The notes under the pieces: generated by a model
Told to the model about the DNA's origin: nothing
Databases searched by the model: none
Seen by the model: only the letters and a program-made list of their open reading frames with translations
Origin: a virus
Length of the DNA stretch: 64,000 bases
Strand: one strand, 5' to 3'
Virus record (IMG/VR): IMGVR_UViG_3300032562_000016
Made by a program: the position numbers and the translations under genes
Shown: positions 7,946-34,780 of the stretch, one piece after another
How positions within the stretch are numbered: the stretch's first letter is position 1
How the letters are laid out: the number at the start of each line of letters is the position of its first letter

Positions 7946-8848
7946 TTAGTAAGAACCGTATGCGCCTAGTGGATCTGAGTATCCAAAAGAATAACGCTCT
8001 CTTGATTTGTAACGAACGTTCCCTGTATCGAAGTCCCCGTCCATAGAATTTTGCAATGGTGTACGAACGAAGTGCTTGAGGCCGTTAGGTACGTCAGTTG
8101 TCAAGAACCAAGCATTAGGCGCTGTCAAGAAGTGGTTAATTGTGTAACCATCTGGAACAGAACCATTGTTCTTGATTGCGTTGATATCGTTGTTGTTTGT
8201 ACCAACACGGAGTTCAGTTTCGAGCAAACGTGTTGCAACGAACTGGAGTGCTGGAGGAACAACCAACTTCTTAGGCTTAGCGGCGATCAAAAGCCCACGC
8301 TCGTCTGTCCATGCGGCGACCTGAATAACAGCATTTTCAAGGGCTGTTTCGTTCAAGTCAGCAGGAGTAGAAGGTGTGTTCGCGTTTGTACCGCCGTTCA
8401 CCAATGGGTGAGCTGTAGAGAACAAAGACTGACCGTCACCACCAGTGTAAGCGCCGTTGAAGCCGTTATTTAAAACAGCAGCAGCTTTAACTTGCTTGGT
8501 GTAAGCCATTGCGCGAGCAAGACCTTTTGTGTAACGAGCAGACAAGCTGTCATACAAGTTATCTTCAATAGCTTCTTCTGTTAAGGAAAAGCCAAGAGCG
8601 ATAGTCTCGTGTGTATAGCGAGCTGTCCATGCTTCTTGTGCATTGTCATAAGCGATGGCATTGCCCTCGGCCTTAACAGGTGCTGCAGAGAAACCTGACA
8701 GTTTTGTTTCTTCTTCGAATGAACGCTCAGAGGTCTCTGTTTCATAGATCTCTTTGTGTTCTTCGCCGTAGCGTGCGTACTCTAATCCAAACAATGCGTT
8801 CAGTCCAGGGAGCAGCTCTTTGAGCAGTTGTGCGCGTGAAATTGCCAT
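7946..8848 (-). CDS. major capsid protein candidate
   Basis: 300 aa. It follows scaffold-like and 278-aa genes and precedes a strong terminator. Composition is consistent with a major capsid protein, but no search was possible. Confidence 0.5.
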   Translation of the reverse strand: MAISRAQLLKELLPGLNALFGLEYARYGEEHKEIYETETSERSFEEETKLSGFSAAPVKAEGNAIAYDNAQEAWTARYTHETIALGFSLTEEAIEDNLYDSLSARYTKGLARAMAYTKQVKAAAVLNNGFNGAYTGGDGQSLFSTAHPLVNGGTNANTPSTPADLNETALENAVIQVAAWTDERGLLIAAKPKKLVVPPALQFVATRLLETELRVGTNNNDINAIKNNGSVPDGYTINHFLTAPNAWFLTTDVPNGLKHFVRTPLQNSMDGDFDTGNVRYKSRERYSFGYSDPLGAYGSY

Positions 8849-11534: not shown

Positions 11535-11721
11535 CGTCCAAATGCTCCACTTTTTGTTTAAGGTCTATGATGATTCCACATGCAGCTTCAAGACCTCGCA
11601 ACTGGCCGCATATGTATTTATATTCTTCATAAGAAGTCGCATTACCCCTGGCCAATGCTTGTTCAAGCATGTCAATACGGTCTTTGTACTCCCTTAAAAG
11701 AAAGTCTAAATTCTGGTCCAT
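11527..11721 (-). CDS. hypothetical small protein
   Basis: 64 aa, overlaps its neighbours by a few nt. Confidence 0.35.
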   Translation of the reverse strand: MDQNLDFLLREYKDRIDMLEQALARGNATSYEEYKYICGQLRGLEAACGIIIDLKQKVEHLDDE

Positions 11722-14267
11722 TATTCACCTCCCTGTTGTGGTGTTTGTTGATTCATTTGAGCTTGTTGTATCTTTGAATCGTGCTCCATTCTTTTGTGTA
11801 AAGTCTGGGCTATCAAGCCTTCGCGGCTTTGATCTTTTTCATGCTCATGTTGAGCCAATGTTTTAACAGCATCTTTTCTGATATCTGCTGATCGGAGTTG
11901 TTTCTCCATCTTCATTTCAGCAGTAGCTTTAAGTGCGTTCACATCTATCTGCTTCATTTGCGTAGCTGTTTGCGCCGCAATTCTTGCCTTTTCAATCTCT
12001 TGCTGAGACTGTTTTAAAGCAATATCAGCTTGATCTTTTTGAGCCTTGCGTTGTTGCTCGGCTTGCTTAATAGCAATCTCTTGCTGTTGCATTTGAACCA
12101 ATGGATCTTGCTGTTGTTGCTGCGCTTGCTGCTGTGCAACTTGAGCTTGGTTAGACTGAAGCAACCTAGTAGCTGCTTGTGCAAGTATCGGCGCAAGTCT
12201 TGCCTCAACTTGTGGGTCAATTGGTATATCTTCACCGGACGCATCTGTCTGCGGCGGCAATGTCATACCAAGTTGTTTCTCAATCTCTATTCTGTACTGG
12301 AATCCTAAGTGCTCATTAACGTGAGCCATCATAGCGGCCTCTAATTGCTGAGCCATTGGGTTATTCTGTAGCAACTGCATGATCTTTGGATCTTGCATAG
12401 CCGCCATATGAACAGTAATGTGAGATGTATGATCCTGATATGCAAACGCTTTGACCGGCTTCATCATAAGAACGTTTTGGTTCTCTGTGATTGGATCCAT
12501 TGGGCGCATATCTTCAGGTAAAGGTATCAGCTTTGCCGCATTTTTAATGCTCAAAACTTCTAACATTTGCCTATATAAGAACGGCATATTGAATAATTGA
12601 GGCTGTTGCTGCGCTAATTGCATAACCGCCTGGTATTGAACGATCTTTTGAGCCATTGTTGAGGCATTTGGATCACTCACTGGGATCACATCTACGCTCT
12701 CATAATCAGACTTTTTAGCCCTTTTTCCGCCGACTTCGGGCTCATAATCGTAATCTTCAGGCGCATTTGCAGCAATAATTTCCTTTAAAAGCCTCAATTC
12801 TTGCTTTAAAGAGTAGTGAATACGAGCTTGAACCGCAGACATTACCTTAAGTGTGCGCTCTAATATAGCTAATGTTGTACCAACTGGGGCTGCCGCAGAC
12901 ATATCGCTGACCTGAAGATCTGCTGTATTAGCAAATCTACGTCCTTCTTCAACGATCTGATTGAGCAACGCCAGAAGAGTTTGGCTTGGCTCTTTATATG
13001 GCAACGGTACGATGTTGTCTTTAATAGATCCACTAGGTACGTCCACATCTCTGAACTCGCCCGGTGCAATTGGTGTATCGTCACCCTTAACGCGTAAACC
13101 TCTGGTCTTAAATCCGCCTTGTAAATTAGACAGTGATCCAGCATCAACCAATTGGCGAATAATAGAAGTTCCTGATTTTGCATATGCTCCAATTAAATGG
13201 ATCAAACCAAAACAATAGAAACCAAATCCAGGAATATATCCATAATGTACAAAGTGCTGGCGCTTTAAATATAAGCTATCGTTTTCTTTCCAGTTACGGC
13301 GAATAGCCAATACATTCTGAGTACCTTTCTCAATAGTAACTATATAAGGCAAACCAATTTCTGTATGGTTTCCGTGTTCATCAGTATGCTCAAATCCTTT
13401 TAAATTAAGATTTACACTGACTTCAAAGATCTTATATCTATCATCAGACGTAGCTCTAAAGCCAAGCTTTTCTGCGATTTTCTTTTCTACTTCATCCAAT
13501 ACATTGACTGGATCGCCTATATCTATATCTCGATATACCCCAGCATCTTGGAGTTTTCTAATTTCATTTTCTGTCTTGCGCATTACATGTGTAACACGCT
13601 CTGCATTTTCTAAGCTAGATGCGCCGTAAGGTACAACTACATCTTCAGCAGGTACATATAAAGATACTTGTCTTCCAAGTGTTGGATCTTCGTATACTTT
13701 CTTAAAAGCATTTCCAGCTAGACCCAAGCCCCACAACATTCTTTCTGTCTCAGGGCGATACTCAGGCATCTTTTCCGTCAACTCAAGATTCATGTCATCT
13801 TGAACGCGCTCGGCAGAGTCTTTTTTCTCTGGCGTTTCTTTTCCTATAACGTGAGTCTTAACAGGACCAGTCGCAGGAAAAATACTCATCATTGTTTCGG
13901 CTTGGAACTTAACCAAAGCTTCAGCTAATAATGGGTGATATACACCACATGCGCCTTCCCAGGGCTCTGATCTTTCTTCAATCTTTAAGCCCAATAATTC
14001 TAGGCCGTCTACATAAGTTTGCAGCCAATCTTTCCTGGCATCTATGTCATTACTAATATCTTCTATTAGTTCATCAGCAATAATTTTTAATTCTGATTCA
14101 TCAATTAGATCTGCTAAGTTTTCATAAAATCCGCCTGGTGGACCTGGATCTGGCTGATCCTCATCTTCTTCTCCTGGCAATTGAATTTCTATTTCTATCT
14201 CTGGCATCTGCTCCGCTAAAGCTTCAATACCTTGGGGTGCTTGTGCTAATGACTTATCTATTGACAT
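11721..14267 (-). CDS. portal protein candidate (848 aa) with Q-rich C-terminal tail
   Basis: Large protein immediately downstream of the TerL region in the canonical TerS-TerL-portal-scaffold-capsid order. C-terminal QQQAQQQQQ low-complexity tail. Plus-strand ORFs inside it (12014-12308, 12869-13218) are judged spurious. Confidence 0.55.
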   Translation of the reverse strand: MSIDKSLAQAPQGIEALAEQMPEIEIEIQLPGEEDEDQPDPGPPGGFYENLADLIDESELKIIADELIEDISNDIDARKDWLQTYVDGLELLGLKIEERSEPWEGACGVYHPLLAEALVKFQAETMMSIFPATGPVKTHVIGKETPEKKDSAERVQDDMNLELTEKMPEYRPETERMLWGLGLAGNAFKKVYEDPTLGRQVSLYVPAEDVVVPYGASSLENAERVTHVMRKTENEIRKLQDAGVYRDIDIGDPVNVLDEVEKKIAEKLGFRATSDDRYKIFEVSVNLNLKGFEHTDEHGNHTEIGLPYIVTIEKGTQNVLAIRRNWKENDSLYLKRQHFVHYGYIPGFGFYCFGLIHLIGAYAKSGTSIIRQLVDAGSLSNLQGGFKTRGLRVKGDDTPIAPGEFRDVDVPSGSIKDNIVPLPYKEPSQTLLALLNQIVEEGRRFANTADLQVSDMSAAAPVGTTLAILERTLKVMSAVQARIHYSLKQELRLLKEIIAANAPEDYDYEPEVGGKRAKKSDYESVDVIPVSDPNASTMAQKIVQYQAVMQLAQQQPQLFNMPFLYRQMLEVLSIKNAAKLIPLPEDMRPMDPITENQNVLMMKPVKAFAYQDHTSHITVHMAAMQDPKIMQLLQNNPMAQQLEAAMMAHVNEHLGFQYRIEIEKQLGMTLPPQTDASGEDIPIDPQVEARLAPILAQAATRLLQSNQAQVAQQQAQQQQQDPLVQMQQQEIAIKQAEQQRKAQKDQADIALKQSQQEIEKARIAAQTATQMKQIDVNALKATAEMKMEKQLRSADIRKDAVKTLAQHEHEKDQSREGLIAQTLHKRMEHDSKIQQAQMNQQTPQQGGE

Positions 14268-14966: not shown

Positions 14967-16457
14967 TTAATAATAATTGGCCCTGCGTCTCGGACGATAC
15001 TCATCTTTTTCGTCAGAGTCTAAACTAATAAACCCACCTTTTCTAAAACGAATCAATGCCTGGGTGCTGGAGTCAACCAAGTCATCGTGCGCAGCATTTG
15101 GAAATGAAGCCATCTGCTCAATAACTTCATCCGCCCACCGAGTCTCTGGAGCCCATACTTTACCAGACCTAAAGAGATCAGTCACGCTATTCATACGAAC
15201 AAATTTATCATTACCACGGCTCGGCGTAAAATCTTCTACCGGAACCCCCATTCTACGCAATTCAAATATCAATGGACTACCCGCCGCCTTAGCCTCGATC
15301 AAACAACAGTCCGGGCTGTACTCTTTATACATAGCTAATGCTTTTTCTTTTAACTCAGGGAACTCCATCCTCTGCTGAAAAGCATCCAATAAAATAATAT
15401 GAGGATCTTCTATATTCTCATCCTTATAAAATATCCCCCAAGTCGTACAAGCCGAGAAGTCACTTCTCTCACTCTTAGTAAACGCCGTATCCCAGCTCTG
15501 TAATATAAACTCACATCTCGGCGGCCTATCATCGCTCCATCTTTTCCACCACTCCCTCTTAACTAAAGCGCCTTCCTCACCAGTCGGACTTTGTTGATAC
15601 TGCGCATTCCATTTAGCCGGCGGTAACTCCTCTTTTAAAGCCTCTAATTCTTCGATACTCCAGAACTCAGGCCAAAGCGGCTTACCAGTAGGCATAATAG
15701 CGGGCAACTCTATCAGCTCCCACTGCTCTCCCTTTTCCCTCATTAACGAATCTTTAAGTACTCGACCCGTTAAATCCGCCTCACCCCACCTGGTCATCAC
15801 TATAACAATCGACCCGCCCGGCTGTAAACGCTGTCTCGGTCCAGACGTATACCACTCATACACTTTCTGATAAACCTCCGGATTTCCAGCAGCCATAGCA
15901 GCTTCTTGCTCACTATGCGGATCATCAATAATAAGCAAATCCGCGCCCTTACCCGTTACAGTACCCCCAACACCAATAGCAAAGTACTCCCCGTCATGGT
16001 TAGTAGCCCATCTACCCGCCGCTTTACTATCTTGTCTTAGCGCAACGCCAGGAAATACCTTCGCATAAGCCTCAGAACCTACCAAATTCCTCACTTTTCT
16101 ACCAAATCCAACCGCTAAATCCGCCGTATTAGACGTCTGAATAATCTTTTTCCCAGGATATCTACCCAAAAACCAGCTCGGCAGCAAAAAAGACGCAAAT
16201 TCCGACTTCGTATGACGCGGCGCCATATTAATAATCAACCGCTTTATCTTCCCACTAGCTATCTCTTCAAATTTTCTAGCCACTAAAGCATGATGCCTTC
16301 CCGGAATAAACCCCGGCCACATCATCTTTACATAATGTATGAAATTTTCCTGCGCCTTCTCCCGGTCCATCGCGTCCTTATAGACCTGGAAATCATGAAA
16401 TAACTTCTCCTGCTCGTTTATCGGCAGTTTTGCAATCAATTCAGCTATATCACTCAA
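14967..16457 (-). CDS. terL: terminase large subunit
   Basis: 496 aa. ATPase region with a Walker-B-like LLIIDDPHSE. C-terminal RNaseH-like nuclease region (ILQSWDTAF...LIEAKAAGSPLI). Position next to TerS. Confidence 0.8.
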   Translation of the reverse strand: MSDIAELIAKLPINEQEKLFHDFQVYKDAMDREKAQENFIHYVKMMWPGFIPGRHHALVARKFEEIASGKIKRLIINMAPRHTKSEFASFLLPSWFLGRYPGKKIIQTSNTADLAVGFGRKVRNLVGSEAYAKVFPGVALRQDSKAAGRWATNHDGEYFAIGVGGTVTGKGADLLIIDDPHSEQEAAMAAGNPEVYQKVYEWYTSGPRQRLQPGGSIVIVMTRWGEADLTGRVLKDSLMREKGEQWELIELPAIMPTGKPLWPEFWSIEELEALKEELPPAKWNAQYQQSPTGEEGALVKREWWKRWSDDRPPRCEFILQSWDTAFTKSERSDFSACTTWGIFYKDENIEDPHIILLDAFQQRMEFPELKEKALAMYKEYSPDCCLIEAKAAGSPLIFELRRMGVPVEDFTPSRGNDKFVRMNSVTDLFRSGKVWAPETRWADEVIEQMASFPNAAHDDLVDSSTQALIRFRKGGFISLDSDEKDEYRPRRRANYY

Positions 16458-20349: not shown

Positions 20350-20358
20350 GGTCTAAAA

Positions 20359-20550
20359 ATGAACAATCCAATTATTGCTTATCATAAAAAATCAGAGCTT
20401 CGCGGTTGGTCTGAGGTATGCCGTGATTCTATATATTGGGAAGGTTGGCACGAATTCGACCGATCAATGATAGAAGAGCTTCTTAAATCAGGGGAAGAGG
20501 TAATAACCTGCGGTTGGAATATGTACCAAGTAATTAAGGAGGCCAAATAA
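20359..20550 (+). CDS. early protein
   Basis: 63 aa. Confidence 0.4.
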   Translation: MNNPIIAYHKKSELRGWSEVCRDSIYWEGWHEFDRSMIEELLKSGEEVITCGWNMYQVIKEAK

Positions 20551-21329
20551 TGTACAAAATAATTGAAAAGAATAACCCGCTCGCCGTGCACTGTATTTGT
20601 GACACCCTAGAACGCGCCGAGTACTGGATTAAACAAACCGCCCCGGAATATTGCTTAAAGGGTTATTTTATGGATAAGACCTTGACCCCGGAAAGCTTCA
20701 CAATTAAAAAGGGTTAAACAATGTACACCGTAACCTATAAAGACACAAACGGCGGACTGTTCGGCGATTCTATGGAAACGCGGACATTCTCTAACTACCA
20801 AAGTGCCCGAGTATTCGCCCGGGTAAAAAAGGGAACTATTACAAGGGTTAAACCATGAAAGAGATTATCGAAAACCTTTTAAGAATTCAAGAACTATTAA
20901 ACGATCCGGAAGCGGATGATTACTTCACCCATAACGAAATCGACAGACTACTAACCCAAACGCTAGAAAAACTAAAGGCTAACCAATGAGAAAAATTAAG
21001 ATTGAATTAACTATTGAAATAAAAGAACATGATTCCTACGGATGCCAAAGCAATGCAGACTGGGTTTATAACACTATTGAGGAGCAATTAGACCCCGGAG
21101 AATCAATAATTGATTACAAAATAACAGACGAAAAATCAGATATTACAGAAGAGGCTAATTAATGAAAACACTATTTCACGATCAACTACACGCGCACCGC
21201 ACCGCTCGCCGGGCTCAGAAAAACGAACCCGATCATAGATTTATTGTCGATCAAGTTATTTGGGGAACTAATCCGGCCTGGATTATCTACCGATTAGACT
21301 CCGCCGGGCGAATAATTGGCCGTCTCTAA
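20550..21329 (+). other. Run of five sub-60-aa, translationally coupled early ORFs: 20550-20717, 20721-20858, 20855-20989, 20986-21161 and 21162-21329.
   Basis: Manual translation. Each has an ATG preceded by an SD. Stops and starts overlap as TAATG, ATGA or TGATG, and there is no gap between consecutive ORFs. Confidence 0.4.
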
Positions 21330-21370
21330 AATTCACGCCTGAGTCAGGCTTACTAAAAAAGGAATTAACA

Positions 21371-21565
21371 ATGAAAAAATTTATAGTGTATATGGTTCGA
21401 GTTGAGCACATTATTTACCCCATAAATGTAGAGGCAGAAGATCAGGAGGAAGCGGAAGAACTGGCGCGCAAAAAATGGGATGACGGGGATTTTAATTCAA
21501 AAGGAGAGGTTGTATACGGAGAAGAATTTATAAACCAAGTAGACGAAATAATGGATGAAAAATGA
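21371..21565 (+). CDS. early protein
   Basis: 64 aa, acidic. Confidence 0.4.
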   Translation: MKKFIVYMVRVEHIIYPINVEAEDQEEAEELARKKWDDGDFNSKGEVVYGEEFINQVDEIMDEK

Positions 21566-22527: not shown

Positions 22528-22725
22528 ATGATTAAAGCCCTTTTTACGATTGATCTAATTGAGGACGAGGACGGAAATGTTCTCGTTCGTTCTAACTATA
22601 CCGGCGAAGGCGAGGCAGTAGAGGAAATAGGACATGATATCCTACGTCAGCTACTCCTTGCCGAGTCTATTAGCAACGGAAATATAACCGTTCAATCCCT
22701 GCATTATTTAGCGCATATTCAATAA
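22528..22725 (+). CDS. early protein
   Basis: 65 aa; its 3' end overlaps the convergent primase-like gene. Confidence 0.4.
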   Translation: MIKALFTIDLIEDEDGNVLVRSNYTGEGEAVEEIGHDILRQLLLAESISNGNITVQSLHYLAHIQ

Positions 22726-23541
22726 CTGATTCAGGCTTAAACCGAATTTAAGAACCCCTACCCGCCTAGAATAATCGTTCGCATCTTCGCCTACTGTATC
22801 GCTCATCCAGTATTTAGAGCCGATTTCCTTGGCTATTTTCTCCCCCGTTCCGCTCGCGTCATTGTCAGCAATCACCACGATTGGGTCAGGCTTTAATGAT
22901 TCAGCTATCTTTTTCATGTTACTGGCACTGAAACACACATGTATTCTGTACTGGCGCTTCATACTTTTTAAAGCTTTACGGATACTAAGCCCAGTAGCAT
23001 ATCCCTCACAAAGTATATGAACCCCCCCATTATCAAATATGAACTCTGCGTTACTGGTTCTTTGACCGAATAGGAACTTTTTCCCGCCGTCCTCATCAAT
23101 TAATTGACATCCGACAATCGTATCGTTAACCCTCATTGGTATAACTAAAAGCCGGCTTGAGTCACGGTTATAGATTAAACCCTCCTCCTCATCAAATCCT
23201 TTTGCCTTTAAATAAGAATGAGTCCCGATTTGGGATTGGGATATGATTGATTCCGCTTTTTCCTTAGCCTCCTGATTCAGTCTTCTGCGCTCCTGATCTG
23301 CTTTGTCGATTAATTGCCTGGCCTTTTTAGCATCTATTTGAATATTTCCTGATTCAGGGTTCCAAATAGACACTTCTGCATCTATCGCATGGTTCTGGAT
23401 AAATGCCATATTACCCATGAACTTTACCGCTCCATTCTTTTTATTTGGGTGATCTGTAGTTGGATATCTCTTCCATATACCCAGGGGAGGCATATGATTT
23501 ACGATAATCCCGTGCACCCTACAAAAATCAATCAAATCCAT
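22708..23541 (-). CDS. Toprim-domain protein (putative DNA primase)
   Basis: ILCEGYATGLSI...PIVVIADNDASGTGEKIA matches Toprim acidic motifs (E...DxD), like DnaG/T7 gp4 primase cores. Confidence 0.5.
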   Translation of the reverse strand: MDLIDFCRVHGIIVNHMPPLGIWKRYPTTDHPNKKNGAVKFMGNMAFIQNHAIDAEVSIWNPESGNIQIDAKKARQLIDKADQERRRLNQEAKEKAESIISQSQIGTHSYLKAKGFDEEEGLIYNRDSSRLLVIPMRVNDTIVGCQLIDEDGGKKFLFGQRTSNAEFIFDNGGVHILCEGYATGLSIRKALKSMKRQYRIHVCFSASNMKKIAESLKPDPIVVIADNDASGTGEKIAKEIGSKYWMSDTVGEDANDYSRRVGVLKFGLSLNQLLNMR

Positions 23542-25338: not shown

Positions 25339-25699
25339 TTTTTTCCTTTAATTTAGCTTCTATTATTCGGGAAATGACATATAACTCATCAGCACTGCAA
25401 TCTAATTCCACGGGCGATTCCATACAAGCCTCCCAAATTTCCTCACCCGTCAACCCTACCCATTCTTTAGGATGAGTATAGAGAGTAACTCCGGCAGATC
25501 CGTCTGTAACTTCTCGCCATATGCCATCGGTAAACTTTGCAAACTTACCCATAGGCTCACCTTGCTCTTGCTTTAATGCTTCTTCTAAGGCTTTAATTGC
25601 ACTTTGAGCTTTATCTGCCCAGTCACCATCAACTATTTCATCGTGCCAATTACATCCTCCAAAAACTTCAAGTGCTTGTTTTATTGCTTCTTTAGTCAT
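25328..25699 (-). CDS. member 4 of the tandem paralog family
   Basis: 123 aa; HPKEWVGLTGEEIWEAC, C-terminal IIEAKLKEKNGY, N-terminal MTKE. Confidence 0.5.
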   Translation of the reverse strand: MTKEAIKQALEVFGGCNWHDEIVDGDWADKAQSAIKALEEALKQEQGEPMGKFAKFTDGIWREVTDGSAGVTLYTHPKEWVGLTGEEIWEACMESPVELDCSADELYVISRIIEAKLKEKNGY

Positions 25700-27183
25700 C
25701 TTGCCCTCTTCATCTTTTTAATATATGCCTTGATTCGCGAGTCTACAAACTTCTCTACTTCTAAACTAGGTTGCTTTGGGGTATCTGATAGGTTCTTAGG
25801 CCATACTCCAAATTTATCCTTATAAGTATGAGCTGCTCTGCCCTGCGACCACCCAGAATGCTCCGTATACCACATCAGTTGTGACCACCATTCCTGCTTA
25901 TTCTCGCGGGACATAGTAGCCAACTCAGACATTTCACCCGGAACAGATTCAACCTTATTCCTTCTCTCCCTTACATGCCCGCAATGACTGCATACATCCA
26001 TATATCCAGGCATATACATAGAACATTTAGGACACTTAGCTTCTTTCTTTTCCTTCTCAGTAGGTTCTTTCTTAGGCTTTTCCTTACTGTCGTTTAACTC
26101 ACTTACGCCGTTCTCATATACGTCTTCCCATTCTTCTCTGAACCTGAGATAGTTACCGCTATGATCTAGCCATACCGCAAACTTCTTTGATTCCGGGTCA
26201 TCCTGATTCGACCTCATCACGCGCCCCATCTGCTGAATGTGACTTGATAATGATTTTGAAAAAGGACGGGCTGATACGCCGATCATTACATCTGGAACAT
26301 CAAATCCTTTTGTTAAGATATCCGTAGCTATTAAGCCGTGAATCTCTGTATCCGGCTTACTGAACTCCGCTATAACTTCCTTCTTGAATTCGTCATCATC
26401 CTTATAGCTGATTGAGATAAAGTTATATCCTTGCTCCGCAAACTTCTGGCTTAAATCTATTCCGTGCGCTACCCCAGAACAGAAAACAATCGTCTTTCTT
26501 GGTGCTCCAAATATCTCATGCGTTTTCTTAATCCACTCGGTAACTATATCTCCGGTGATCTGCATTCCTCTTGTTGTTGTTTCTTTCTGCGACCACTCCC
26601 CCGCTACCTTTTTAGCCCCCTCCATATCTATCTCTTTGGCTACAAATACTCTAAGCGGTACTAATACGCCTTGATCCACGAGATCTTTTGTTGTTATTGT
26701 GGATACTACATTCTGGTATATCTTGCCGAGCCCTTTGGTAAATGGTGTAGCCGTTAAGCCAATTACTTTTACATCTGGATTGTTCTTAATAAACTCAACC
26801 GTCTGCTTTCTCTGTTGATGTACCTCGTCAACAATCAACAAAGATAAGCCTGGAAATGACCCACGCTTTTCTAAGGTCTGCGCCGAACATACCTGGATAT
26901 TCTCATAAGGTCTAAAGCGCCAGTGGCCTGACTGCAATACCCCATGCTCTATCTTGTACTTATCTAGGCGTTGACTGGTTTGATCGCAAAGAACAATCCT
27001 ATCCAATATCATTGCTGATTTGTTTCCCTTCGATCTAGTGGCTTCTAAGAGGGCAATAGCCATCTCAGTTTTCCCACCTCCAGTGCCAAGATATAGGATT
27101 TGACTTCGGTATCCTTTAGCAAAACCCTCTCTTAGCTTCTGAAGTCCAAGCTCTTGATAAGGCCTAAGCTTTAAACTAGACAT
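25696..27183 (-). CDS. SF2 DEAD/DEAH-box helicase with C-terminal zinc ribbon
   Basis: Walker A GTGGGKT, DEVH box, LTATP (motif III), QQMGRVMR (motif VI), and a C-terminal CPKC...CSHCGH zinc ribbon. Confidence 0.85.
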   Translation of the reverse strand: MSSLKLRPYQELGLQKLREGFAKGYRSQILYLGTGGGKTEMAIALLEATRSKGNKSAMILDRIVLCDQTSQRLDKYKIEHGVLQSGHWRFRPYENIQVCSAQTLEKRGSFPGLSLLIVDEVHQQRKQTVEFIKNNPDVKVIGLTATPFTKGLGKIYQNVVSTITTKDLVDQGVLVPLRVFVAKEIDMEGAKKVAGEWSQKETTTRGMQITGDIVTEWIKKTHEIFGAPRKTIVFCSGVAHGIDLSQKFAEQGYNFISISYKDDDEFKKEVIAEFSKPDTEIHGLIATDILTKGFDVPDVMIGVSARPFSKSLSSHIQQMGRVMRSNQDDPESKKFAVWLDHSGNYLRFREEWEDVYENGVSELNDSKEKPKKEPTEKEKKEAKCPKCSMYMPGYMDVCSHCGHVRERRNKVESVPGEMSELATMSRENKQEWWSQLMWYTEHSGWSQGRAAHTYKDKFGVWPKNLSDTPKQPSLEVEKFVDSRIKAYIKKMKRAR

Positions 27184-27185
27184 GC

Positions 27186-27971
27186 TTAAGCCTTTTTAAG
27201 CTGACGTTGATACCTCGCTATCGTCTTCTTAAGCTGAGCATTCTCCGACTGGAATGTATCCCTGCTCTTTGTTACGGCCTTGAGCTCGATCTTTAATTGC
27301 TTAATCTCATCTCTTAACTCTTGGATTGTTTCTTCTGCAAGCTTTGGATCTGGTGCGGATACGGTTGCCAGTTGATCGGATAGCTTCTCGTTTTGCTCCA
27401 TTAAATAATCTATTGTTTCTTGATCTTTGTTATGGACTGGGGCTACTTCTACCTTTGGCTCTACTTTGGTTTCTTTGGTAGACCTGGTGCGCTCGTACTC
27501 TTGCCCATCTTTGGTCTTAACCGTTATGCTCTTAGGTGCTGTTCCGGCTTTGTTCCTGATCTTGCTGACATACGGCTGAGATACGCCACAATGCCTAGCT
27601 ATCTCTGTATCTGTCCAGTCTGACCACTCAAAATCTTCCACCATCTTCTGGGCGTTCTTGCACCGCTCGGCGCGAGTAGGGGGCTTACCGTGAGCATTAT
27701 TGGCATTCATGCCCTTTAGCTCTGCATCCCTCTGAGTTCCAGTTAAGACCTCTGCGTTTATGTATTCCTCTCCGTTCCTAAGTGAAGCATGGATACGGTG
27801 AAATCCATCTGCTGGCCATACATCTGTTCCATCGTGGAAAACAATAATAGGAGGAAATATAGTACCGTCTGCCATTGCTTCGGCATATTGGGTAACTGTC
27901 TCCTGGTCAAGTGCTCGGGATTGTGTGTTGCCATCCATGCGGATAGCTGAAATTAGTACGTCTTTAATCAT
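27186..27971 (-). CDS. ParB-like nuclease domain protein with C-terminal coiled coil
   Basis: N-terminus IFPPIIVFHDGTDVWPADGFHRIHAS matches the ParB/Srx fold signature; HTH-like middle; coiled-coil tail. Confidence 0.65.
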   Translation of the reverse strand: MIKDVLISAIRMDGNTQSRALDQETVTQYAEAMADGTIFPPIIVFHDGTDVWPADGFHRIHASLRNGEEYINAEVLTGTQRDAELKGMNANNAHGKPPTRAERCKNAQKMVEDFEWSDWTDTEIARHCGVSQPYVSKIRNKAGTAPKSITVKTKDGQEYERTRSTKETKVEPKVEVAPVHNKDQETIDYLMEQNEKLSDQLATVSAPDPKLAEETIQELRDEIKQLKIELKAVTKSRDTFQSENAQLKKTIARYQRQLKKA

Positions 27972-30026: not shown

Positions 30027-30353
30027 CTAGAACGATAGTAGTATTTTTATAGATTCTTTTTCAGTTTGATCTATTGTGTGTTCACAATCTTCCCAAGGGG
30101 GAGTAGTACAGTTGCATAACGGCTTATATACGCCAGTAGTAAAAACAACTTTAGATTTCGTATTGTTTGTATTAATAGATAATTTTCTTTTGCCAAAAGT
30201 TAAATGAGATAACTCGGCAGTATTATTCTGATACCTTTTCGCCCACCCAGGCCGTAGCGGATAAGGTATACCAAATGCTCTGGCTGATGTAGCAGTAATA
30301 GATATATTATCTGGATAGTACTTACTTAAGAAATCTTTAAGTGTAATTATCAT
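30027..30353 (-). CDS. hypothetical protein
   Basis: 108 aa, Cys-containing. Confidence 0.45.
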   Translation of the reverse strand: MIITLKDFLSKYYPDNISITATSARAFGIPYPLRPGWAKRYQNNTAELSHLTFGKRKLSINTNNTKSKVVFTTGVYKPLCNCTTPPWEDCEHTIDQTEKESIKILLSF

Positions 30354-31514
30354 TTTTAGTGAGCCAGAGTGAGTGAAGTGATATTTAGAGGAAAGCTATG
30401 CCTATAGGAGACCTAAGCCTCCTATATAGCATTACCTGAGCCGTCGGTCGTTCGTTTCAACCCGTATCAGGGGAGCTGTAAAGTTGTTCGCCAGCTCCTA
30501 TCTTCCAACGTTATCTGCTCAACATGCAGCGTTCCCTTACCACACCGTCGGAAGGCATCCCTATCGTTGCCACCGTGTACCGCCTCATTGAAGAGCGGAT
30601 TGGTATAGCTATTTTCGAAAACACTCTATCCCTATGCGTCCGGATGGGGATGCTTCTGTCCGGAATACAACACAAGCCAGAACCGTCGTGACTCTGCTCC
30701 TCAGGGACTACGCTTTCTAAACCTTTTCAGGCTACCGATACCATGACGTATGACGGCTACTCGCTTCCTCTACCCTCGGTATGAAATCTTTTCCCGATAG
30801 ACTCTTATGTCGGGTAACGGCAGAAAGCAAAAAACCCTTACTGAAAGATACGAGCTTTAGGCTTGGTTGCCGCATACAAGTCTGCCATACCAGAATCTTG
30901 TAGCTTTGACGAAGCCCGCTCCTTCAGTAAGGGTTCGGGACTGTTTCGTTATATGGAACTACAACGGGTTACCAAGCCGTTGATGGGGGGAGTATATCAA
31001 ATAATTTCAGGTTATGTCAAACCCAAGTAAAAATATATGTAGTCTTTTACACGGGGAAATAGTTGTTGGTGCTCACATAAAGCAGTGTTTTGTTACCAAT
31101 TCGACTCTAATGGATCATAAAAAAATGATTATTAGATTACTGGCGCTAACCCAGTAAACACCAACAAGAATGAAGACTGCTACCCGCTGTTCACAGAGCA
31201 GGAAACCTGCATTTCTCGCAATCCTCATACTTGTTAGCTGTTGGCAAAATAAGACTTTCTTAATGCATCATAACAATGCTCCGCCTCGTATATACCAACA
31301 AGAATGAGGACTACCTTTATGTCTTTATCCCGTGGCTGGCCTTGTCACAGCCCTTTGGACTCGGGTTAAAGCTGGGCGTCCCCCAGCAATCCTCATGCTT
31401 GTAAGTACTCCCCCAGCAGTTGTAGCCGCCGAGGGAGAAGGACAACATTTGTCCGAACAAGTATGAAGACTCGGAGGCTTTTATTTCAGTTAGCCACGAT
31501 GCCTGAACACACCG
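30354..31514. ncRNA. Large ORF-free region (about 1.16 kb) with higher GC and many hairpins; candidate large structured ncRNA(s) and/or origin or other cis-acting locus. Strand unknown.
   Basis: No ORF of 60 aa or more in six frames over 1161 bp, in an otherwise roughly 95% coding genome. Hairpins visible: CTATAGGAG/CTCCTATAG (around 30395-30430), GGAGCTG/CAGCTCC, TCCGGA...TCCGGA, CCCTTACTGAA...TTCAGTAAGGG (11-bp stem enclosing about 80 nt), plus three 13-bp-stem hairpin units at 31163-31540. Confidence 0.45.
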
Positions 31515-31540
31515 TTATTGTGAATCTTCATACTTGTTAG
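31163..31540. repeat. Array of three long hairpin units. 5' arms AACAAG(A/T)ATGA(A/G)GACT are at 31163-31178, 31297-31312 and 31456-31471. 3' arms (C/G)AATC(C/T)TCAT(A/G)CTTGT(T/A)AG are at 31219-31237, 31387-31405 and 31523-31540.
   Basis: Read directly. Unit 3 arms form a perfect 13-bp helix. Units 1 and 2 have 1-2 mismatches with partly compensatory changes. Loops are 40-75 nt. The array is bracketed by roughly 90-nt direct repeats (GCTCRCATAAAGCAGYGTT...GGCGCTAACCCRGTA) at about 31066-31160 and 31546-31625. Confidence 0.7.
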
Positions 31541-31748
31541 TTTGGGACGGCTCGCATAAAGCAGCGTTATTTTGTGCCTCATTACTCCAAGGAGATACGG
31601 CGCTAACCCGTATTACCGCCCCAAGGTTTTTATTATAAGCAGAAATATTAATCCGTTTCTTGTTGGGGCATTTTTTACACTTAATCCCCTGGCAAACACC
31701 TAGTTGTTCACACCTTGTAATCTTCATAAAAAAATGGGGATGCCGCAC
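31515..31748 (-). CDS. doubtful ORF (GTG start, Cys-rich, overlaps repeat R2 and a hairpin arm)
   Basis: The 77-aa track ORF starts with GTG and spans the conserved non-coding repeats. Probably not a real gene. Confidence 0.2.
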   Translation of the reverse strand: MRHPHFFMKITRCEQLGVCQGIKCKKCPNKKRINISAYNKNLGAVIRVSAVSPWSNEAQNNAALCEPSQTNKYEDSQ

Positions 31749-31794
31749 GACACCCCCAAAAGTTCAACAGGAACTACCAATGAAAGACTATATT

Positions 31795-32082
31795 CTACTC
31801 GCATTTTTTAAGCATTGCTAAAGCTTCTTCAACAGAATTTACTATCGCCAGTAGCCCTCCCGTCCATTCATTGAAAAACTTCTGTTCCGCGTCCGTCAGC
31901 TTTCTAGCACTAGGAACTTTTTTACCATCTTTAACTTCTAGCAAAAGGGTATACCCCATATACCCCACCAAAAGATCCGGTACTCCGTCACCCATAGTGA
32001 TTATTCTTACAGTAGCACCCGCCTTACGGAGGGCGTCCACTATGTCGTTTTGATTGGCGTCAATTCTATTTGCATATCTCAT
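31795..32082 (-). CDS. VRR-NUC domain nuclease
   Basis: 95 aa; GVPDLLVGYMGYTLLLEVKDG...L...Q..F..W.GG...IV.S.EEA matches the VRR-NUC (PD-(D/E)XK-fold) signature D...E.K. Confidence 0.65.
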   Translation of the reverse strand: MRYANRIDANQNDIVDALRKAGATVRIITMGDGVPDLLVGYMGYTLLLEVKDGKKVPSARKLTDAEQKFFNEWTGGLLAIVNSVEEALAMLKKCE

Positions 32083-32435: not shown

Positions 32436-33307
32436 AATTAACAAATAAATTTGGCTTGCCAGAAACCATAGTAAACGTCTTAAAGCGCCCCACCTATTCC
32501 AAAGGTAAGGCTCATATATCTGCAACTGAGCTCATAAACTCACCAAAGATCGTACAGCTTAAAAGAATGTATTGGGACGAGCTGGAGGAGGATGCAAGCT
32601 CTATGGTCTGGTCTTTGTTTGGATCTGCTGTTCATAACATCCTAGAGCACGGTAAAGCGGATAACCATATCGTAGAAGAAAGAGTACACGTTACCCATGA
32701 TGGATGGAACATATCCGGAGCAGTAGATCTTCAGGAAGTATACGAAGACGGAATAGTTATTAACGACTATAAAACTACTACCGCCTGGGCAGTTCAAAAC
32801 GACAAGCCGGAATGGGAAGAACAGCTAAACATCTATGCCTGGTTATTACAGAAAGCCAAGAATAAACCCGTCAAAAAGCTTCGTATTGTGGCCATAGTGC
32901 GCGATTGGAGCTCAAGGGAGGCCAGTACCAAGGAAAGCTATCCACAAGCCCCCATCGTGATCCTAGACCAGACCTTATGGCCTTTTGAGCGGGCAGAGTT
33001 ATTTATAGACGAGAAGTTAAAGTTACACGGCGAAGCTTATTTTGAATCTGAGACAGACGGAGATCTACCGGACTGTACGCCAGAGGAGATGTGGGAGAAG
33101 CCAAGTAAATATGCTGTTATGAAAGATGGTGGATTAAGAGCAAAAAGCGTACACGACACTTTAGAAGAAGCTCAAAAAGCACTGCCGGAGAAGGGGTATT
33201 CCATTGAATGCAGGCCCGGAGAAAGAACAAGATGTAAATCTTATTGTCAAGTATCAAAATTTTGTAATCAATATAAAGAATACATTAAAAATAATAGCGA
33301 TCTTTAA
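32432..33307 (+). CDS. PD-(D/E)XK nuclease with C-terminal Cys cluster (Cas4/RecB-like exonuclease)
   Basis: VDLQEV...IVINDYKTTT (D..E.K core) and the C-terminal C...CKSYCQVSKFC cysteine cluster typical of Cas4/AddB-type nucleases. Neighbours an ERF annealing protein. Confidence 0.5.
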   Translation: MKLTNKFGLPETIVNVLKRPTYSKGKAHISATELINSPKIVQLKRMYWDELEEDASSMVWSLFGSAVHNILEHGKADNHIVEERVHVTHDGWNISGAVDLQEVYEDGIVINDYKTTTAWAVQNDKPEWEEQLNIYAWLLQKAKNKPVKKLRIVAIVRDWSSREASTKESYPQAPIVILDQTLWPFERAELFIDEKLKLHGEAYFESETDGDLPDCTPEEMWEKPSKYAVMKDGGLRAKSVHDTLEEAQKALPEKGYSIECRPGERTRCKSYCQVSKFCNQYKEYIKNNSDL

Positions 33308-33310
33308 TAT

Positions 33311-33835
33311 GTGGGAATTTGTGATATTATTCCCACATTTAAAGGGGAAATAATGAACATATCTCAAGAATATTTAAAAGAAGTTTTTATATATAAAGAT
33401 GGAGTTCTTTTTTGGAATGTTGATAAAAGAAAAATGAAGATTGGAGAAAAAGCAGGTAGAACAAAAAAAAATGGATATTGTGAAATTAGATTAAATGGAA
33501 AACTTTATGGCACTCATAGATTAATTTTTTTAATGTTTCATGGATATCTTCCAAAAATTATTGATCATATTGACGGGAACCCTTCAAACAATTTAATTTC
33601 AAACTTAAGAAGCGCAACTCATGCAGAGAACATGAGAAATTCAAAAAAACCAATTAATAACAAATCAGGATTTAAAGGAGTTTATTTCAACAAAGAAACA
33701 AAAAAATGGATAGCTCAATGCGTTGTTAATAATAAAAAACATCATATAGGAAGCTACGAAGACATTCATGAAGCCGCAAATGCAATTATGAGTTTTAGAA
33801 ATAAAAACCATAAAAATTTTGCAAAACACAATTAA
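33311..33835 (+). CDS. HNH homing endonuclease with AP2-like DNA-binding domain (probable start at 33353)
   Basis: GYCEIRLNGKLYGTHRLIFLMFHGYLP...IDHIDGNPSNN (HNH_3) followed by KGVYFNKETKKWIAQC...HHIGSYEDIHEAANA (AP2-like). Confidence 0.7.
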   Translation: MGICDIIPTFKGEIMNISQEYLKEVFIYKDGVLFWNVDKRKMKIGEKAGRTKKNGYCEIRLNGKLYGTHRLIFLMFHGYLPKIIDHIDGNPSNNLISNLRSATHAENMRNSKKPINNKSGFKGVYFNKETKKWIAQCVVNNKKHHIGSYEDIHEAANAIMSFRNKNHKNFAKHN

Positions 33836-33862
33836 ACAATTTCAACAATACAAGGAACAAAA

Positions 33863-34780
33863 ATGATCTTATTTTTTATTGCGATTTTTCTATTAATCAT
33901 TCCAATTGGCATTGGATATGCTCTTCATTTTAATTATTTAGACAGTATAAAAACTCAAAATACATTTAAGAGCGGAGATAGCAAGATACCCGAACCAGTA
34001 TTTAAGCCAACAATACCGGTTATTGCGGGCTTAGTTTTAATGCTCATATATATTTGTCTTGAGTCCTACGTTATCGTACCTGCTGGCCATATCGGCATTC
34101 AGGTTACGTTTGGTACGGTCAATCAGGCAACACTTGGAGAAGGATTACATTTTGTAAATCCATTATCTAGCGTACAGAACCTGGACGTTCGTTTGGTATC
34201 AGCCAAGCTTGTAGGATCAGCGGCGGGTACTAAAGATCTACAGCAAGTACATACCGATATCGTTGTGAACTACCGTATATCCGGCGATAAAGCGGCTCAT
34301 ATCTACAAAGAGTTTGGCCTGGATCTTCAGGATAAAGTAGTTATGCCCTTTGTTAACGAGTCCTTTAAAGCCATTACCGCGCACTACACCAGCGAGGAAT
34401 TAATTACCAAGCGGGACGAAGTATCAGCAGGAATTAAGCAGGAGCTCTCAGACAAACTGGGAAAGTACAACATAGTTGTGAGCGATATTTCTTTGGTGAA
34501 TTTCGGTTTCTCTGCCGAATACCAAAAGGCTATTGAGGCAAAGGTAATAGCAACCCAGAGCAAGCTCCAGGCCGAACAAGATCTACAAAGGATTGAGGTA
34601 GAAGCCAAGCAAACCATTGCTAAGGCGGAAGGTCATGCTAAAGCTATCCAGATCGAAACAGCGGCTATCAACTCCCAGGGCGGACAGTCATACGTTCAGT
34701 TAAAAGCCATTGAGCGTTGGGACGGGAAGATGCCACAAACTATTGCCGGAGGCGCGACACCGTTCGTGAATTTGAAATGA
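33863..34780 (+). CDS. SPFH/band-7 (prohibitin/HflC-like) membrane protein
   Basis: N-terminal TM helices, then a typical SPFH core (IQVTFGTVNQATLGEGLHFVNPL...IVVNYRI...) and a coiled-coil C-terminus. Confidence 0.75.
   Translation: MILFFIAIFLLIIPIGIGYALHFNYLDSIKTQNTFKSGDSKIPEPVFKPTIPVIAGLVLMLIYICLESYVIVPAGHIGIQVTFGTVNQATLGEGLHFVNPLSSVQNLDVRLVSAKLVGSAAGTKDLQQVHTDIVVNYRISGDKAAHIYKEFGLDLQDKVVMPFVNESFKAITAHYTSEELITKRDEVSAGIKQELSDKLGKYNIVVSDISLVNFGFSAEYQKAIEAKVIATQSKLQAEQDLQRIEVEAKQTIAKAEGHAKAIQIETAAINSQGGQSYVQLKAIERWDGKMPQTIAGGATPFVNLK

Follow-up and report, generated by a model that had tools for sequence, protein, structure and literature searches.

The window, i.e., the whole 64,000-nucleotide stretch of viral DNA that was analysed (IMG/VR record IMGVR_UViG_3300032562_000016), has its longest run free of ORFs of 80 aa or more at positions 30354-31794 (1441 nt). 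A preliminary description had called it the only long ORF-free stretch. This held in part: it is the longest, but the second-longest, at 20350-21561, reaches 1212 nt. The claim that it is GC-richer than its flanks was confirmed, with 45.3% against about 40.5% in the 5 kb on either side, and 49% in the left 630 nt. TAA, TAG and TGA stops are spread over all six frames of 30354-31794. Stop-codon recoding thus does not account for the desert, and a hidden long gene was rejected on the same ground.

The minus strand is the strand of all the elements described below and of both flanking genes. The left half of the island (31020 to 30354) contains a promoter and two RNA modules, A and B; the right half (31634 to 31061) is an array of cassettes. 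The upstream edge of the island is formed by the intrinsic terminator (31735-31758, minus strand; 10-bp stem with 6 GC pairs, then TTTTTTT) of a 95-aa nuclease-like gene (31795-32082), an arrangement that is the same in the related loci L002 and L020. On the other side lies a 108-aa gene, the first of a leftward operon that runs through a ParB-like gene, a helicase and a primase. Folding z-scores of the right half are -6.8 (plus strand) and -7.4 (minus strand), and its minus-strand fold is more stable by 46 kcal/mol; the left half has a z-score of -2.9 on the minus strand.

A small Cys-rich ORF of 77 aa (about 31515-31748, minus strand) overlaps the array. It is probably not a gene: its sole database relative is its own sequence, and no ribosome-binding site is visible upstream of its ATG on inspection of the sequence. 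Its first 30 codons or so are common to L020, where they stand behind an inserted gene that, judged by its sequence, reads as PAPS-reductase-like.

The elements of the island recur in hundreds of uncultured phage contigs and match none of the catalogued RNA families. Rfam 15 gave no relevant match for the whole window at the gathering threshold or for 30200-31950 at E up to 10, where only chance snoRNA and miRNA matches were obtained; on 24 related loci it gave tRNA matches only. Neither the GOLLD nor the ROOL model matched in the window (gathering threshold for GOLLD), in 30200-31950 (E up to 10) or in these 24 loci, and no riboswitch model of Rfam matched in the window or the region. For the C4/CI immunity RNAs (P1, P7, P4, N15) there was no relevant Rfam match at E up to 10, assuming that the family is in Rfam. 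No GenBank phage has DNA similarity to the region or to the module A consensus. Among 185,579 species genomes scanned there were 9 matches, 8 of them due to chance, about the number estimated by hand; the remaining one lies on a 3.2-kb contig in a MAG. The elements are thus essentially absent from reference bacterial genomes and GenBank phages, and their biology is so far metagenome-only. The literature searched, by topic and by sequence string, contains no description of them. The supplements of PMC10690425, a catalogue of 10,006 candidate viral structured RNAs, were not covered, and it is possible that the elements are present there unnamed.

Hairpin units and cassettes of the right half

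The array (minus strand) is made of three copies of a conserved two-helix hairpin alternating with tRNA-sized modules. In the direction of reading, these are: module G copy 1 (31540-31634; closing helix GGGGCGG/CCGUCCC, hairpin loop G-GUUAGCG-C and a variable part; CUGCUUUAUGCGAG); hairpin unit C (31456-31540; CUAACAAGUAUGAAGAUUC ... GAGUCUUCAUACUUGUUCGG); hairpin unit B (31288-31405; 67-nt loop); a 60-nt cassette between units B and A (31240-31299; 7-bp closing helix GUUGGUA/UGCCAAC, seen on inspection of the sequence); hairpin unit A (31154-31237; CUAACAAGUAUGAGGAUUG ... CAGUCUUCAUUCUUGUUGG); and module G copy 2 (31061-31177). The 5' closing strand of the latter is the end of the 3' arm of unit A, and its closing helix, the 7-bp GUUGGUG/CACCAAC, is common to the alternating modules of the window array.

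The three hairpin units had been recognised in the preliminary description, though not at their sizes: the arms are of 16-21 nt rather than 13 bp and the loops of 33-67 rather than 40-75 nt. The direct repeats of roughly 90 nt said to bracket them held only in part. They are the two copies of module G, which resemble each other in short blocks only (24 nt at 83%, 11 nt and 13 nt at 100%).

The sequence of the hairpin arm has 5 matches in the window against 0.28 expected. The exact 18-nt arm is found in more than 120 contigs, and hairpin arrays are present in more than 150. Each unit is built of two helices, the outer CCAACAnG/CnUGUUGG and the inner GrrGAUUG/CAGUCyyC, which are separated by a small internal loop and capped by a hypervariable terminal loop. 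Paired column by column, 44 units show an 8-bp outer helix, 2 unpaired positions and a 9-bp inner helix, with loops of 14-109 nt. The inner helix carries a conserved U.G wobble, replaced in some copies by U-A or C-G. In the 44 units, whose orientation had been fixed independently, with the direction of module A as reference, about 75 wobble pairs were counted against about 3 A.C/C.A pairs (author's tally), the latter being what wobbles of the opposite strand would look like.

The cassettes have 45-110 nt and no ORFs. The median payload length is 87 nt, and at least 7 closing pairs are found in 80 of 107 payloads (motif-anchored test). A first closing-helix test was dropped as too permissive (160/192 real vs. 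127/192 shuffled payloads). Module G occurs in 50 distinct copies from 48 loci. Its hairpin stem covaries, and its closing helices, of 41 different kinds, have a median of 10 bp. Payloads are shuffled among phages. Moreover, the loop of unit B is 95% identical to that of unit 1 of L020, yet it stands between different arms.

The window contains no tRNA according to ARAGORN or the Rfam tRNA model. The earlier statement that no cloverleaf could be found is thus correct for the window, while in related phages tRNA-model sequences fill equivalent slots (L196, L226, L237); in L196 and L237 the match begins exactly at GUUGG. Over 289 loci of related arrays, ARAGORN made 30 tRNA/tmRNA calls, in 26 loci.

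The array and module A are independent, since in 100 loci collected with the hairpin arm the covariance model of module A had no match. The array is missing altogether in the relatives L001-L003, which retain module A. The three right-hand hairpins are therefore to be considered as cassettes of an independently distributed array and not as domains of a large RNA.

Two explanations at the DNA level bear on these hairpins. The first is a replication origin or packaging site made of iterated palindromic protein-binding sites on double-stranded DNA, already proposed as an alternative in the preliminary description. In its favour: (i) the replication module adjoins (ParB-like protein, helicase and primase on the left, exonuclease and Erf on the right); (ii) the point of transcription divergence, at about 32.1 kb, is close; (iii) cumulative GC skew has a local minimum at 31-32 kb. 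This minimum coincides with the change of coding strand, so it is not diagnostic of an origin. Against it: (i) unrelated spacers of 33-67 bp separate the half-sites; (ii) the arms covary instead of staying fixed, and G.U pairing is found on one strand only; (iii) L001-L003 have module A without the array; (iv) no direct iterons or AT-rich unwinding element were seen in the repeat analysis. Given wobbles valid on one strand only and covarying stems, this explanation is very unlikely, though it is not excluded as no transcript has been observed.

In the second explanation, the units would act as folded single DNA strands, i.e., as recombination sites comparable to integron attC by which tRNA-sized cassettes are gained, lost and shuffled, or as signals for lagging-strand priming beside the replication genes. 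The layout test for attC is met: the units are imperfect inverted repeats with an outer box, an unpaired spacer, an inner box and a variable terminal structure (14-109 nt), running from ...AAC to GTTGG..., with strand-specific non-Watson-Crick positions, and they delimit shuffled cassettes. Strand-specific wobbles or mismatches are also expected of a hairpin that works on a single DNA strand. Between the window and L020, recombination has combined loops with other arms, and payload shuffling among phages goes in the same direction. The TAGCG of the module G loop recalls CS-6, an element of plasmid single-strand origins, but the resemblance is of 5-6 nt only. On the contrary, no integrase or recombinase was found among 30 window proteins (PHROGs or Pfam; a search that was not exhaustive and did not cover every small ORF), the cassettes are RNAs of tRNA size rather than ORFs, and the core motifs fit RYYYAAC/GTTRRRY only loosely. 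The units are oriented like the flanking genes, and tRNA-model matches begin at their last bases, which fits co-transcription with tRNA-like payloads. Replacement of U.G by U-A or C-G in some copies is as in RNA helices. This second explanation is considered unlikely.

Promoter, module A and module B of the left half

A sigma-70 promoter (30991-31020, minus strand) reads TTGACA-18-TATACT, with TG before the -10 hexamer and 11/12 consensus matches. Most of the inspected rows of the homologue alignment have a pair of the TTGACA/TATAAT type at the equivalent position before module A. A transcription start near 30985 is inferred from this promoter.

Module A (about 165 nt; 30826-30987, minus strand) is supported by covariance model match, covariation and folding. 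It consists of P1 (loop CUUGGUAAC), P2, a long P3 and a variable hairpin P4, followed by U6; P3 encloses the conserved core GAGCGGGCUUCGUCAAAGCU / AUGCGGCAACCAAGCCUAAAGCUCG. Covariance model R1, built without the window sequence, matches 30826-30993 (minus strand) at 129.8 bits (E = 1e-31), its sole match in the window. Module A alone folds at z = -4.6. It is present in more than 150 IMG/VR phage contigs, and each of two pattern scans gave more than 100 IMG/VR stretches. Its P3 is the nested helix of the preliminary description; this claim held, the arms (30833-30848 and 30920-30935) being of 16 nt with 94% complementarity instead of an 11-bp stem.

In alignment A6 (24 rows), 94% of cells are paired, and 98% for P3. 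Both sides have changed in 24 pairs, against 16.4 +/- 1.5 in shuffled and 7-11 in slid controls. Among 118 distinct sequences, P3 has 11-17 pairs with 34 different 3' arms and a CCC/GGG base. Module A ends in a covarying 19-bp helix, then U6, and a T-run follows every listed member from the pattern scans; it must be noted that the 118 P3 sequences had been selected for a T-run after P3, and that the alignments were gathered by exact sequence patterns, so that the choice of columns free to vary is biased. When 63 module A sequences were simply aligned with MAFFT, RNAalifold misplaced the outer helix, the arms being out of register, and this result was discarded. The covariation of module A thus rests on a length-matched subset with a curated structure, plus a direct count of arm pairing.

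As an intrinsic terminator, P3 meets the test of a GC-rich helix followed by a U-run and fails that of a short loop (3-8 nt), since it encloses a folded domain of about 60 nt. For this reason a simple terminator scan does not list P3 and the efficiency of termination is uncertain; a helix closed over such an insert may terminate poorly. UUGGU in the P1 loop can pair with ACCAA of a conserved internal loop. The support for this pseudoknot is one compensatory change (UGGU:ACCA to UGGC:GCCA) in 4 distinct sequences and in 2 of the 24 rows of A6. These may belong to a single lineage, and competing AAGCC pairings exist.

Module B (30374-30819, minus strand) is a multi-helix RNA of about 450 nt with 17 predicted helices (alignment A4, RNAalifold). 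It is present in 11 contigs; A4 comprises 10 contigs. RNAalifold predicted 84 pairs, 37 of them compensatory. The paired cells amount to 97.5%, and 37 pairs have changed on both sides, against 19.2 +/- 2.5 in shuffled and 2-7 in slid controls. Module B extends to the beginning of the replication operon's first gene: a short leader of CACUCACUC type (30354-30373, minus strand) joins it to the ATG of the 108-aa gene. In relatives, a conserved CTCACTCACTCyCTCGGAGTCAnnATG precedes different genes.

Modules A and B form a unit of about 630 nt downstream of the conserved sigma-70 promoter. Their separate occurrence supports the view that they are separable and that leaders are interchangeable. Module B also stands behind two other promoter-proximal long hairpins ending in a U-run. 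Many different 3' sequences follow module A; a single 3' domain common to all its loci was rejected, since clustering by k-mers and BLAST separates the 3' sequences into at least 18 unrelated classes. These 3' domains start within about 10 nt of U6, which leaves no space for a promoter, so that read-through must occur. Another class (class 2) ends in a terminator of its own, and what follows looks, from its sequence, like a promoter that serves the next gene separately; some class-2 domains contain an embedded tRNA-like insert.

The preliminary description had suggested one or more large structured RNAs in the size class of GOLLD and ROOL. Compensatory base changes across related phage contigs, found in modules A and B above shuffled controls, support a structured RNA, no transcript having been shown. 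The large RNA is the left half, where only the nested helix had been seen. The RNA is no member of the GOLLD or ROOL families, whose Rfam models do not match it, nor did any other family match.

The same controls contradict the explanation that the island consists of decayed genes or neutral junk, with hairpins due to chance or recent duplications. A possible gene remnant at 31640-31733 and the absence of the array from some relatives could be cited for it. However, sequence and structure are kept across phages widely diverged in GC and proteins. The helicase of L001 has 82% identity and the best GenBank phage helicase 59%, yet the window and L002 share an identical core of 23 nt. Compensatory substitutions are found in hundreds of independent copies. 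This explanation is all but excluded.

A free-standing RNA acting in trans, like GOLLD and ROOL, is in contrast a live alternative for modules A and B (about 630 nt), although it is held to be clearly less probable than the leader reading given below. It would be a stable RNA with its own job, e.g., a multimeric particle or binding to host machinery, U6 being a linker or weak pause and the tRNA-like array the counterpart of the tRNA islands beside GOLLD and ROOL. GOLLD/ROOL-type ornate RNAs assemble into RNA-only homo-oligomeric particles (PMC12286853). Like them, the left half encodes a structured phage noncoding RNA of several hundred nt, without known function, beside tRNA or tRNA-like genes (PMC12286853), and it recalls the ornate RNAs in size, in the many helices that covary and in the high conservation of its internal loops. 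A conserved half stands beside a variable one, of which there are at least 18 classes of 3' domain, i.e., GOLLD in mirror image (PMC12286853). The tRNA-like insert of some class-2 domains has its parallel in GOLLD linkers, which sometimes hold tRNAs (PMC12286853). In L047, L056 and L060, ARAGORN places a tRNA-Met immediately before the module A promoter; GOLLD env-38 lies downstream of a tRNA-Met (PMC12286853). Class-2 RNAs, with their own terminator and the apparent separate promoter behind it, fit a free-standing RNA gene.

Several observations go against this view: (i) neither Rfam model is matched in sequence or structure, with E allowed up to 10; (ii) the conserved part is the 5' 165 nt with a terminator-like helix and a U6 end, and the U-run directly after the GC-rich helix base in every gathered module A is the signature of a terminator, not of a linker; (iii) the two halves occur apart, module B behind three other contexts and module A before many 3' sequences; (iv) the window-class RNA abuts the conserved ribosome-binding site of the operon. 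This last arrangement fits a cis leader, and the contexts of the two classes conflict.

Proposed working and biological meaning

The preferred reading is that the island consists of RNA genes on the minus strand, in two elements distributed independently among phages. Together with the whole of the working proposed here, it is held to be only a little more likely than not, in the absence of transcript data. While conservation, folds and strand are shown, transcription, termination and processing are inferred without RNA-seq or end-mapping data. On balance, the array is read as a processed precursor, module A as a promoter-proximal terminator or small RNA, and module B as a structured leader.

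Host sigma-70 RNA polymerase would start near 30985. Module A would fold into P1-P4, its long GC-based P3 and U6 forming an intrinsic terminator; termination at U6 would hold transcription down and yield a small RNA of about 165 nt. Polymerases reading through would transcribe module B and then the replication operon. Pairing of UUGGU in the P1 loop with ACCAA could, speculatively, tune terminator formation. The array would be transcribed as one precursor RNA, though no promoter is evident between the upstream terminator and module G copy 1. Each conserved hairpin would be a 5' leader or processing signal for the module starting at its last five bases (GUUGG). This proposal rests on the tRNA-model sequences of other phages that start exactly at GUUGG.

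Terminated phage leaders are a close comparison for module A in this preferred reading. Known examples are lambda pR'-6S RNA-tR', the put RNA of HK022 and the immunity RNAs P4 CI and P1 C4. The likeness is that a strong sigma-70 promoter, constitutively active, gives a short transcript, conserved and structured, that ends at a terminator; the long operon behind this terminator depends on read-through, and there are internal complementary segments comparable to seqA/seqB of P4. No Q-like or N-like gene was identified beside module A. Module A differs from the C4 family in that it matches nothing in Rfam, where C4 is expected. It is far more elaborate than put (two stem-loops, about 70 nt in total), and it is followed by a 450-nt structured RNA; only the position of put, i.e., promoter-proximal and upstream of a terminator and an operon, is comparable, and antitermination activity has not been shown.

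The array can be compared with phage tRNA clusters. The tRNA region of T4 is a multi-tRNA precursor cluster that includes the stable RNA species 1 and 2. Here also, tRNA-sized structured RNAs without ORFs stand in tandem on the same strand, and related contigs hold tRNA-model sequences in equivalent slots. The differences are that the window has no cloverleaf tRNA and that the cassettes have a common acceptor-like closing helix. To our knowledge, no described tRNA cluster has a conserved two-helix hairpin with a hypervariable loop before each cassette. The skipping-rope RNA motif (Weinberg et al. 2017, PMC5737381) is reported to have a conserved stem and a long variable terminal loop and to be often phage-associated. 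The hairpin units share this conserved stem and highly variable loop; nevertheless, they have no Rfam match even at E up to 10, and the conserved nucleotides differ.

A bolder reading is possible, though it is held to be rather improbable. There may be, in uncultured phages of freshwater type, a cassette system for small structured RNAs, in which two-helix hairpins delimit tRNA-sized modules (tRNA-like, GUUAGCG-loop and other recurrent families) with one acceptor-like helix. Recombination at the hairpins would shuffle the modules from phage to phage, and the whole would be an integron-like array for RNA genes. In some phages, the present one among them, this array would lie directly upstream of a new, large and modular RNA made of A and B, a functional counterpart of GOLLD or ROOL.

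Large structured phage RNAs are rare and their functions unsolved. The locus adds at least four new conserved RNA elements, three with dozens to hundreds of variants and module B with eleven, whose structures are well supported and whose context (promoter, terminator, operon, tRNA-like array) is clear. Of these, module A, with 165 nt, is small and promoter-proximal, and its conservation is extreme. The arrays punctuated by hairpins suggest that the "tRNA islands" of phages take in further kinds of tRNA-sized RNAs, which share a signal for processing or recombination. They thus bear on the way phages acquire tRNAs and tRNA mimics, e.g., in countering host defences that target tRNAs.

Noncoding DNA within a replication module

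The region 30354-31794 is genuinely noncoding. TAA, TAG and TGA stops occur in all its frames, and it is the longest stretch of the window without an ORF ≥80 aa. Its GC content is 45.3% vs. ~40.5% in the flanks. Of the structures listed in the preliminary description, the nested helix, all three hairpins and both repeat blocks are present. The right half folds far more stably than shuffled sequence, the minus strand more so than the plus strand. The runner-up stretch without an ORF ≥80 aa (20350-21561, 1212 nt) contains only ORFs of 50-80 aa, and a search of it with the model of module A, the promoter-proximal element of the left half, gave no match.

The window represents the majority of one tailed-phage genome. 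It contains the large terminase (14967-16457), the portal (11721-14267), a head protein (7946-8848) and tail fibres (39-64 kb). The noncoding region is flanked on both sides by the replication module: primase (22708-23541), helicase (25696-27183) and a ParB-like gene (27186-27971) lie to the left on the minus strand; PD-(D/E)XK exonuclease, HNH endonuclease, SPFH protein and Erf lie to the right on the plus strand. Its immediate borders are a 108-aa gene (30027-30353) and a 95-aa nuclease-like gene (31795-32082), both on the minus strand. By helicase, the nearest GenBank relative is an uncultured Caudoviricetes from a freshwater spring (59% identity). It must be mentioned that an HNH-AP2 homing-endonuclease gene (33311-33835, plus strand) lies in a kilobase (33001-34000) of 30.5% GC vs. 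~42% for the window; it looks to have been inserted recently, with the exonuclease and SPFH genes on its two sides. A further homing-endonuclease gene is found at 1783-2445, amid structural genes.

Module A and the sequences that follow it

Syntenic IMG/VR contigs were reached via the flanking 108-aa protein. Besides the 95-aa gene and a terminator, these have the same promoter and homology over ~190 nt of noncoding DNA; the hairpin array of the right half is missing from them. Between the window and one related locus (L002), one helix is altered on both arms, CCCUUACUGAA/UUCAGUAAGGG vs. GCUCUUUAGU/ACUAAAGAGC, around an identical 23-nt core. Scanning IMG/VR with 17 nt of this core gave 107 stretches, ~102 of them being the same element, and a gapped pattern freeing the core gave at least 119 additional stretches. 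In one locus (L133), the gene upstream of module A encodes a 746-aa large-terminase-looking protein with an apparent intein-like insert (...CIPGTMIATPSGD...VVHNC...).

In most rows of the homologue alignment, a TTGACA/TATAAT-type promoter lies ~7 nt 5' of module A (30987 to 30826, minus strand); in the window it reads TTGACA-18-TATACT. Helix P1 carries the conserved loop CUUGGUAAC; P2 is short, whereas P3 is long and, in our reading of the length-matched alignment of 24 sequences, extends through GAGCGGGCUU/AAAGCUCGUUC. Enclosed by P3 are P4, a hairpin that varies, and an internal loop of asymmetric form (CGUCAAA / GGCAACCAAGCCU). In that alignment 94% of cells are paired (98% for P3), and two-sided changes occur in 24 of the 41 pairs vs. 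16.4 ± 1.5 in shuffled alignments (0/500 reach 24) and 7-11 in slid controls. P3 has 11-17 pairs and 34 different 3' arms among 118 distinct sequences. These were pre-selected for a T-run after P3; the T-run is also found 3' of P3 in every listed member from the core and gapped-pattern scans. With the window left out of its build, the covariance model gives a single match in the window (30826-30993, minus strand, 129.8 bits, E = 1e-31), and this copy adopts the predicted fold (-60.4 kcal/mol, z = -4.6). A pseudoknot between UUGGU (P1 loop) and ACCAA is proposed only tentatively; its support is a single compensatory variant, UGGC:GCCA, present in four distinct sequences and also in two rows of the 24-sequence alignment.

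The 5' part of module A (30950-30987) contains tRNA-like strings. By eye, the P1 loop UUGGUA looks like a D-loop, GUAGUUC...GAAAC is similar to tRNA positions 7-25, and P1 starts with CAUCAAC, the motif terminating the array payloads. These strings and CAUCAAC hint that module A may derive from an array cassette, a possibility resting solely on sequences read by eye.

In nearly all loci the next same-strand ORF ≥80 aa begins 280-830 nt past the core, with at least 18 mutually unrelated classes of sequence in between. In L010 and its relatives, a 3' domain of ~270 nt starts ~10 nt past the U-run following P3 (U6) and ends in its own terminator, thus polymerase must pass U6 at least sometimes; the sequence beyond reads like a fresh promoter. 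Four contigs of this class contain a tRNA-like insert (GUAGCUCA...GGGUUCGAUUCCC). In L011, L013, L034 and L054 such an insert, ~130 nt long with tRNA-like D-arm and T-arm sequences (GUAGCUCA ... GGGUUCGAUUCCC), lies inside a helix of the 3' domain (columns ~85-225 of alignment A3), and is not called as a tRNA by ARAGORN; the same kind of element lies 3' of hairpin units in L188, L189, L221 and L226. Given this self-terminated class and the tRNA-like inserts, a trans-acting role like that of the large phage RNAs GOLLD and ROOL (PMC12286853) remains possible, a reading that we regard as clearly less probable than the one favoured below.

Module B and the hairpin array

Module B (30819 to 30374, minus strand), the window's class of 3' domain, is common to L039, L047, L072 and L078 at 68-83% identity, and six additional contigs were retrieved with a loop-derived pattern. 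For 10 sequences RNAalifold gives 84 pairs in 17 helices and notes compensatory changes in 37 of these pairs. Of the cells, 97.5% are paired; two-sided changes are seen in 37 pairs vs. 19.2 ± 2.5 when shuffled (0/500) and 2-7 in slid controls. Module B is autonomous. In six contigs module A lies on its 5' side; this place is taken in L167, L168 and L171 by a different long hairpin, likewise promoter-proximal and with a U-run, and in L170 by a third kind of leader, while in L166 module G, a payload of the array, adjoins module B directly. The two kinds of replacement leader are ~130 nt long, with a long closing helix and then U6-7 (e.g., GGCCGUUUACA...UGUAAGCGGCUUUUUUU and AGCUGUUAGA...UCUAACAGCUUUUUUU); they could be distant analogues of module A. 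On the 3' side comes a conserved CUCACUCACUC...GGAG...AUG, and the gene that it precedes is not always the same: it can belong to an apparent HNH endonuclease family, or encode a "MEDL..AWKNAT" protein or, as in the window, the 108-aa protein.

The array (31634 to 31061, minus strand) consists of three hairpins of one family and their payloads. The consensus of the family is 5'-CCAACA(C/A)G-yAU-GrrGAUUG [14-109 nt] CAGUCyyC-AnY-C(G/U)UGUUGG-3'. When 44 units are oriented by the way module A points, covariation (C-G/A-U, G-C/A-U) is seen in the outer helix and the inner one alike, and at one position 36 of the 44 units have U.G, the others U-A or C-G. By our tally, wobble pairs outnumber A.C pairs by ~75 to 3, thus the hairpin forms on the minus strand only. 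A DNA-level action of the hairpins, attC-like or in priming, is unlikely but not excluded. More than 120 additional contigs contain an exact copy of the 18-nt 3' arm, and module A is absent from all 100 of these that were examined; the array is thus a separate, more widespread element.

The final five bases of the arm, GUUGG, are the start of the next module. A CAAC(A/U)(A/G)C motif lies 3' of 107 of 192 units (median distance 87 nt) and closes a helix ≥7 bp in 80 of these 107 cases. The Rfam tRNA model aligns from exactly this GUUGG in L196 and L237, three tRNA-model matches lie just downstream in L226, and ARAGORN tRNAs are found 70-400 nt downstream of units in ~20 cases. The two stretches of the window that had been described as direct repeats are copies of one such payload, module G (50 distinct copies spread over 48 loci, with 41 different closing helices and the loop G-GUUAGCG-C), which is located inside hairpin-unit arms in L085 and L170. 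Payloads of L172-L289 include several other recurrent families besides module G and tRNA-like RNAs, with examples beginning GUUGGUGAAUGCGC..., GUUGGUGAAAGCGG...GUAGCGAGUAGCCAAC and GUUGGGUGUUAAGC...

The sole close relative of the window's array, in L020, has four units and holds the loop of the window's unit B between different arms, which indicates recombination within arms. In that locus (4593-5379, minus strand) an inserted gene of ~260 aa, which from its translation we take to be PAPS-reductase-like, separates the array from the 95-aa gene's terminator; the window retains only ~90 nt homologous to the sequence just past it.

Novelty and proposed role

No relevant match was found in Rfam 15 for the window and related loci, nor any match in GenBank phages; among 185,579 species genomes scanned there is one matching stray contig, and the literature searched contains no description of these elements. 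They may be present, unnamed, among the 10,006 candidate structured RNAs of viruses catalogued in 2023 (PMC10690425).

A role at the level of transcription accounts most economically for the common strand, the promoter, the U-run and the adjoining ribosome-binding site; we favour this reading with moderate confidence, no transcript having been observed. Since promoter-proximal leaders made of a hairpin plus a U-run are interchangeable before module B, termination or attenuation is suggested as their common function. In this transcription-level reading, the array would be a precursor RNA that is processed, module A would be at once a small RNA and a terminator close to the promoter, and module B would be the structured leader of the replication operon.
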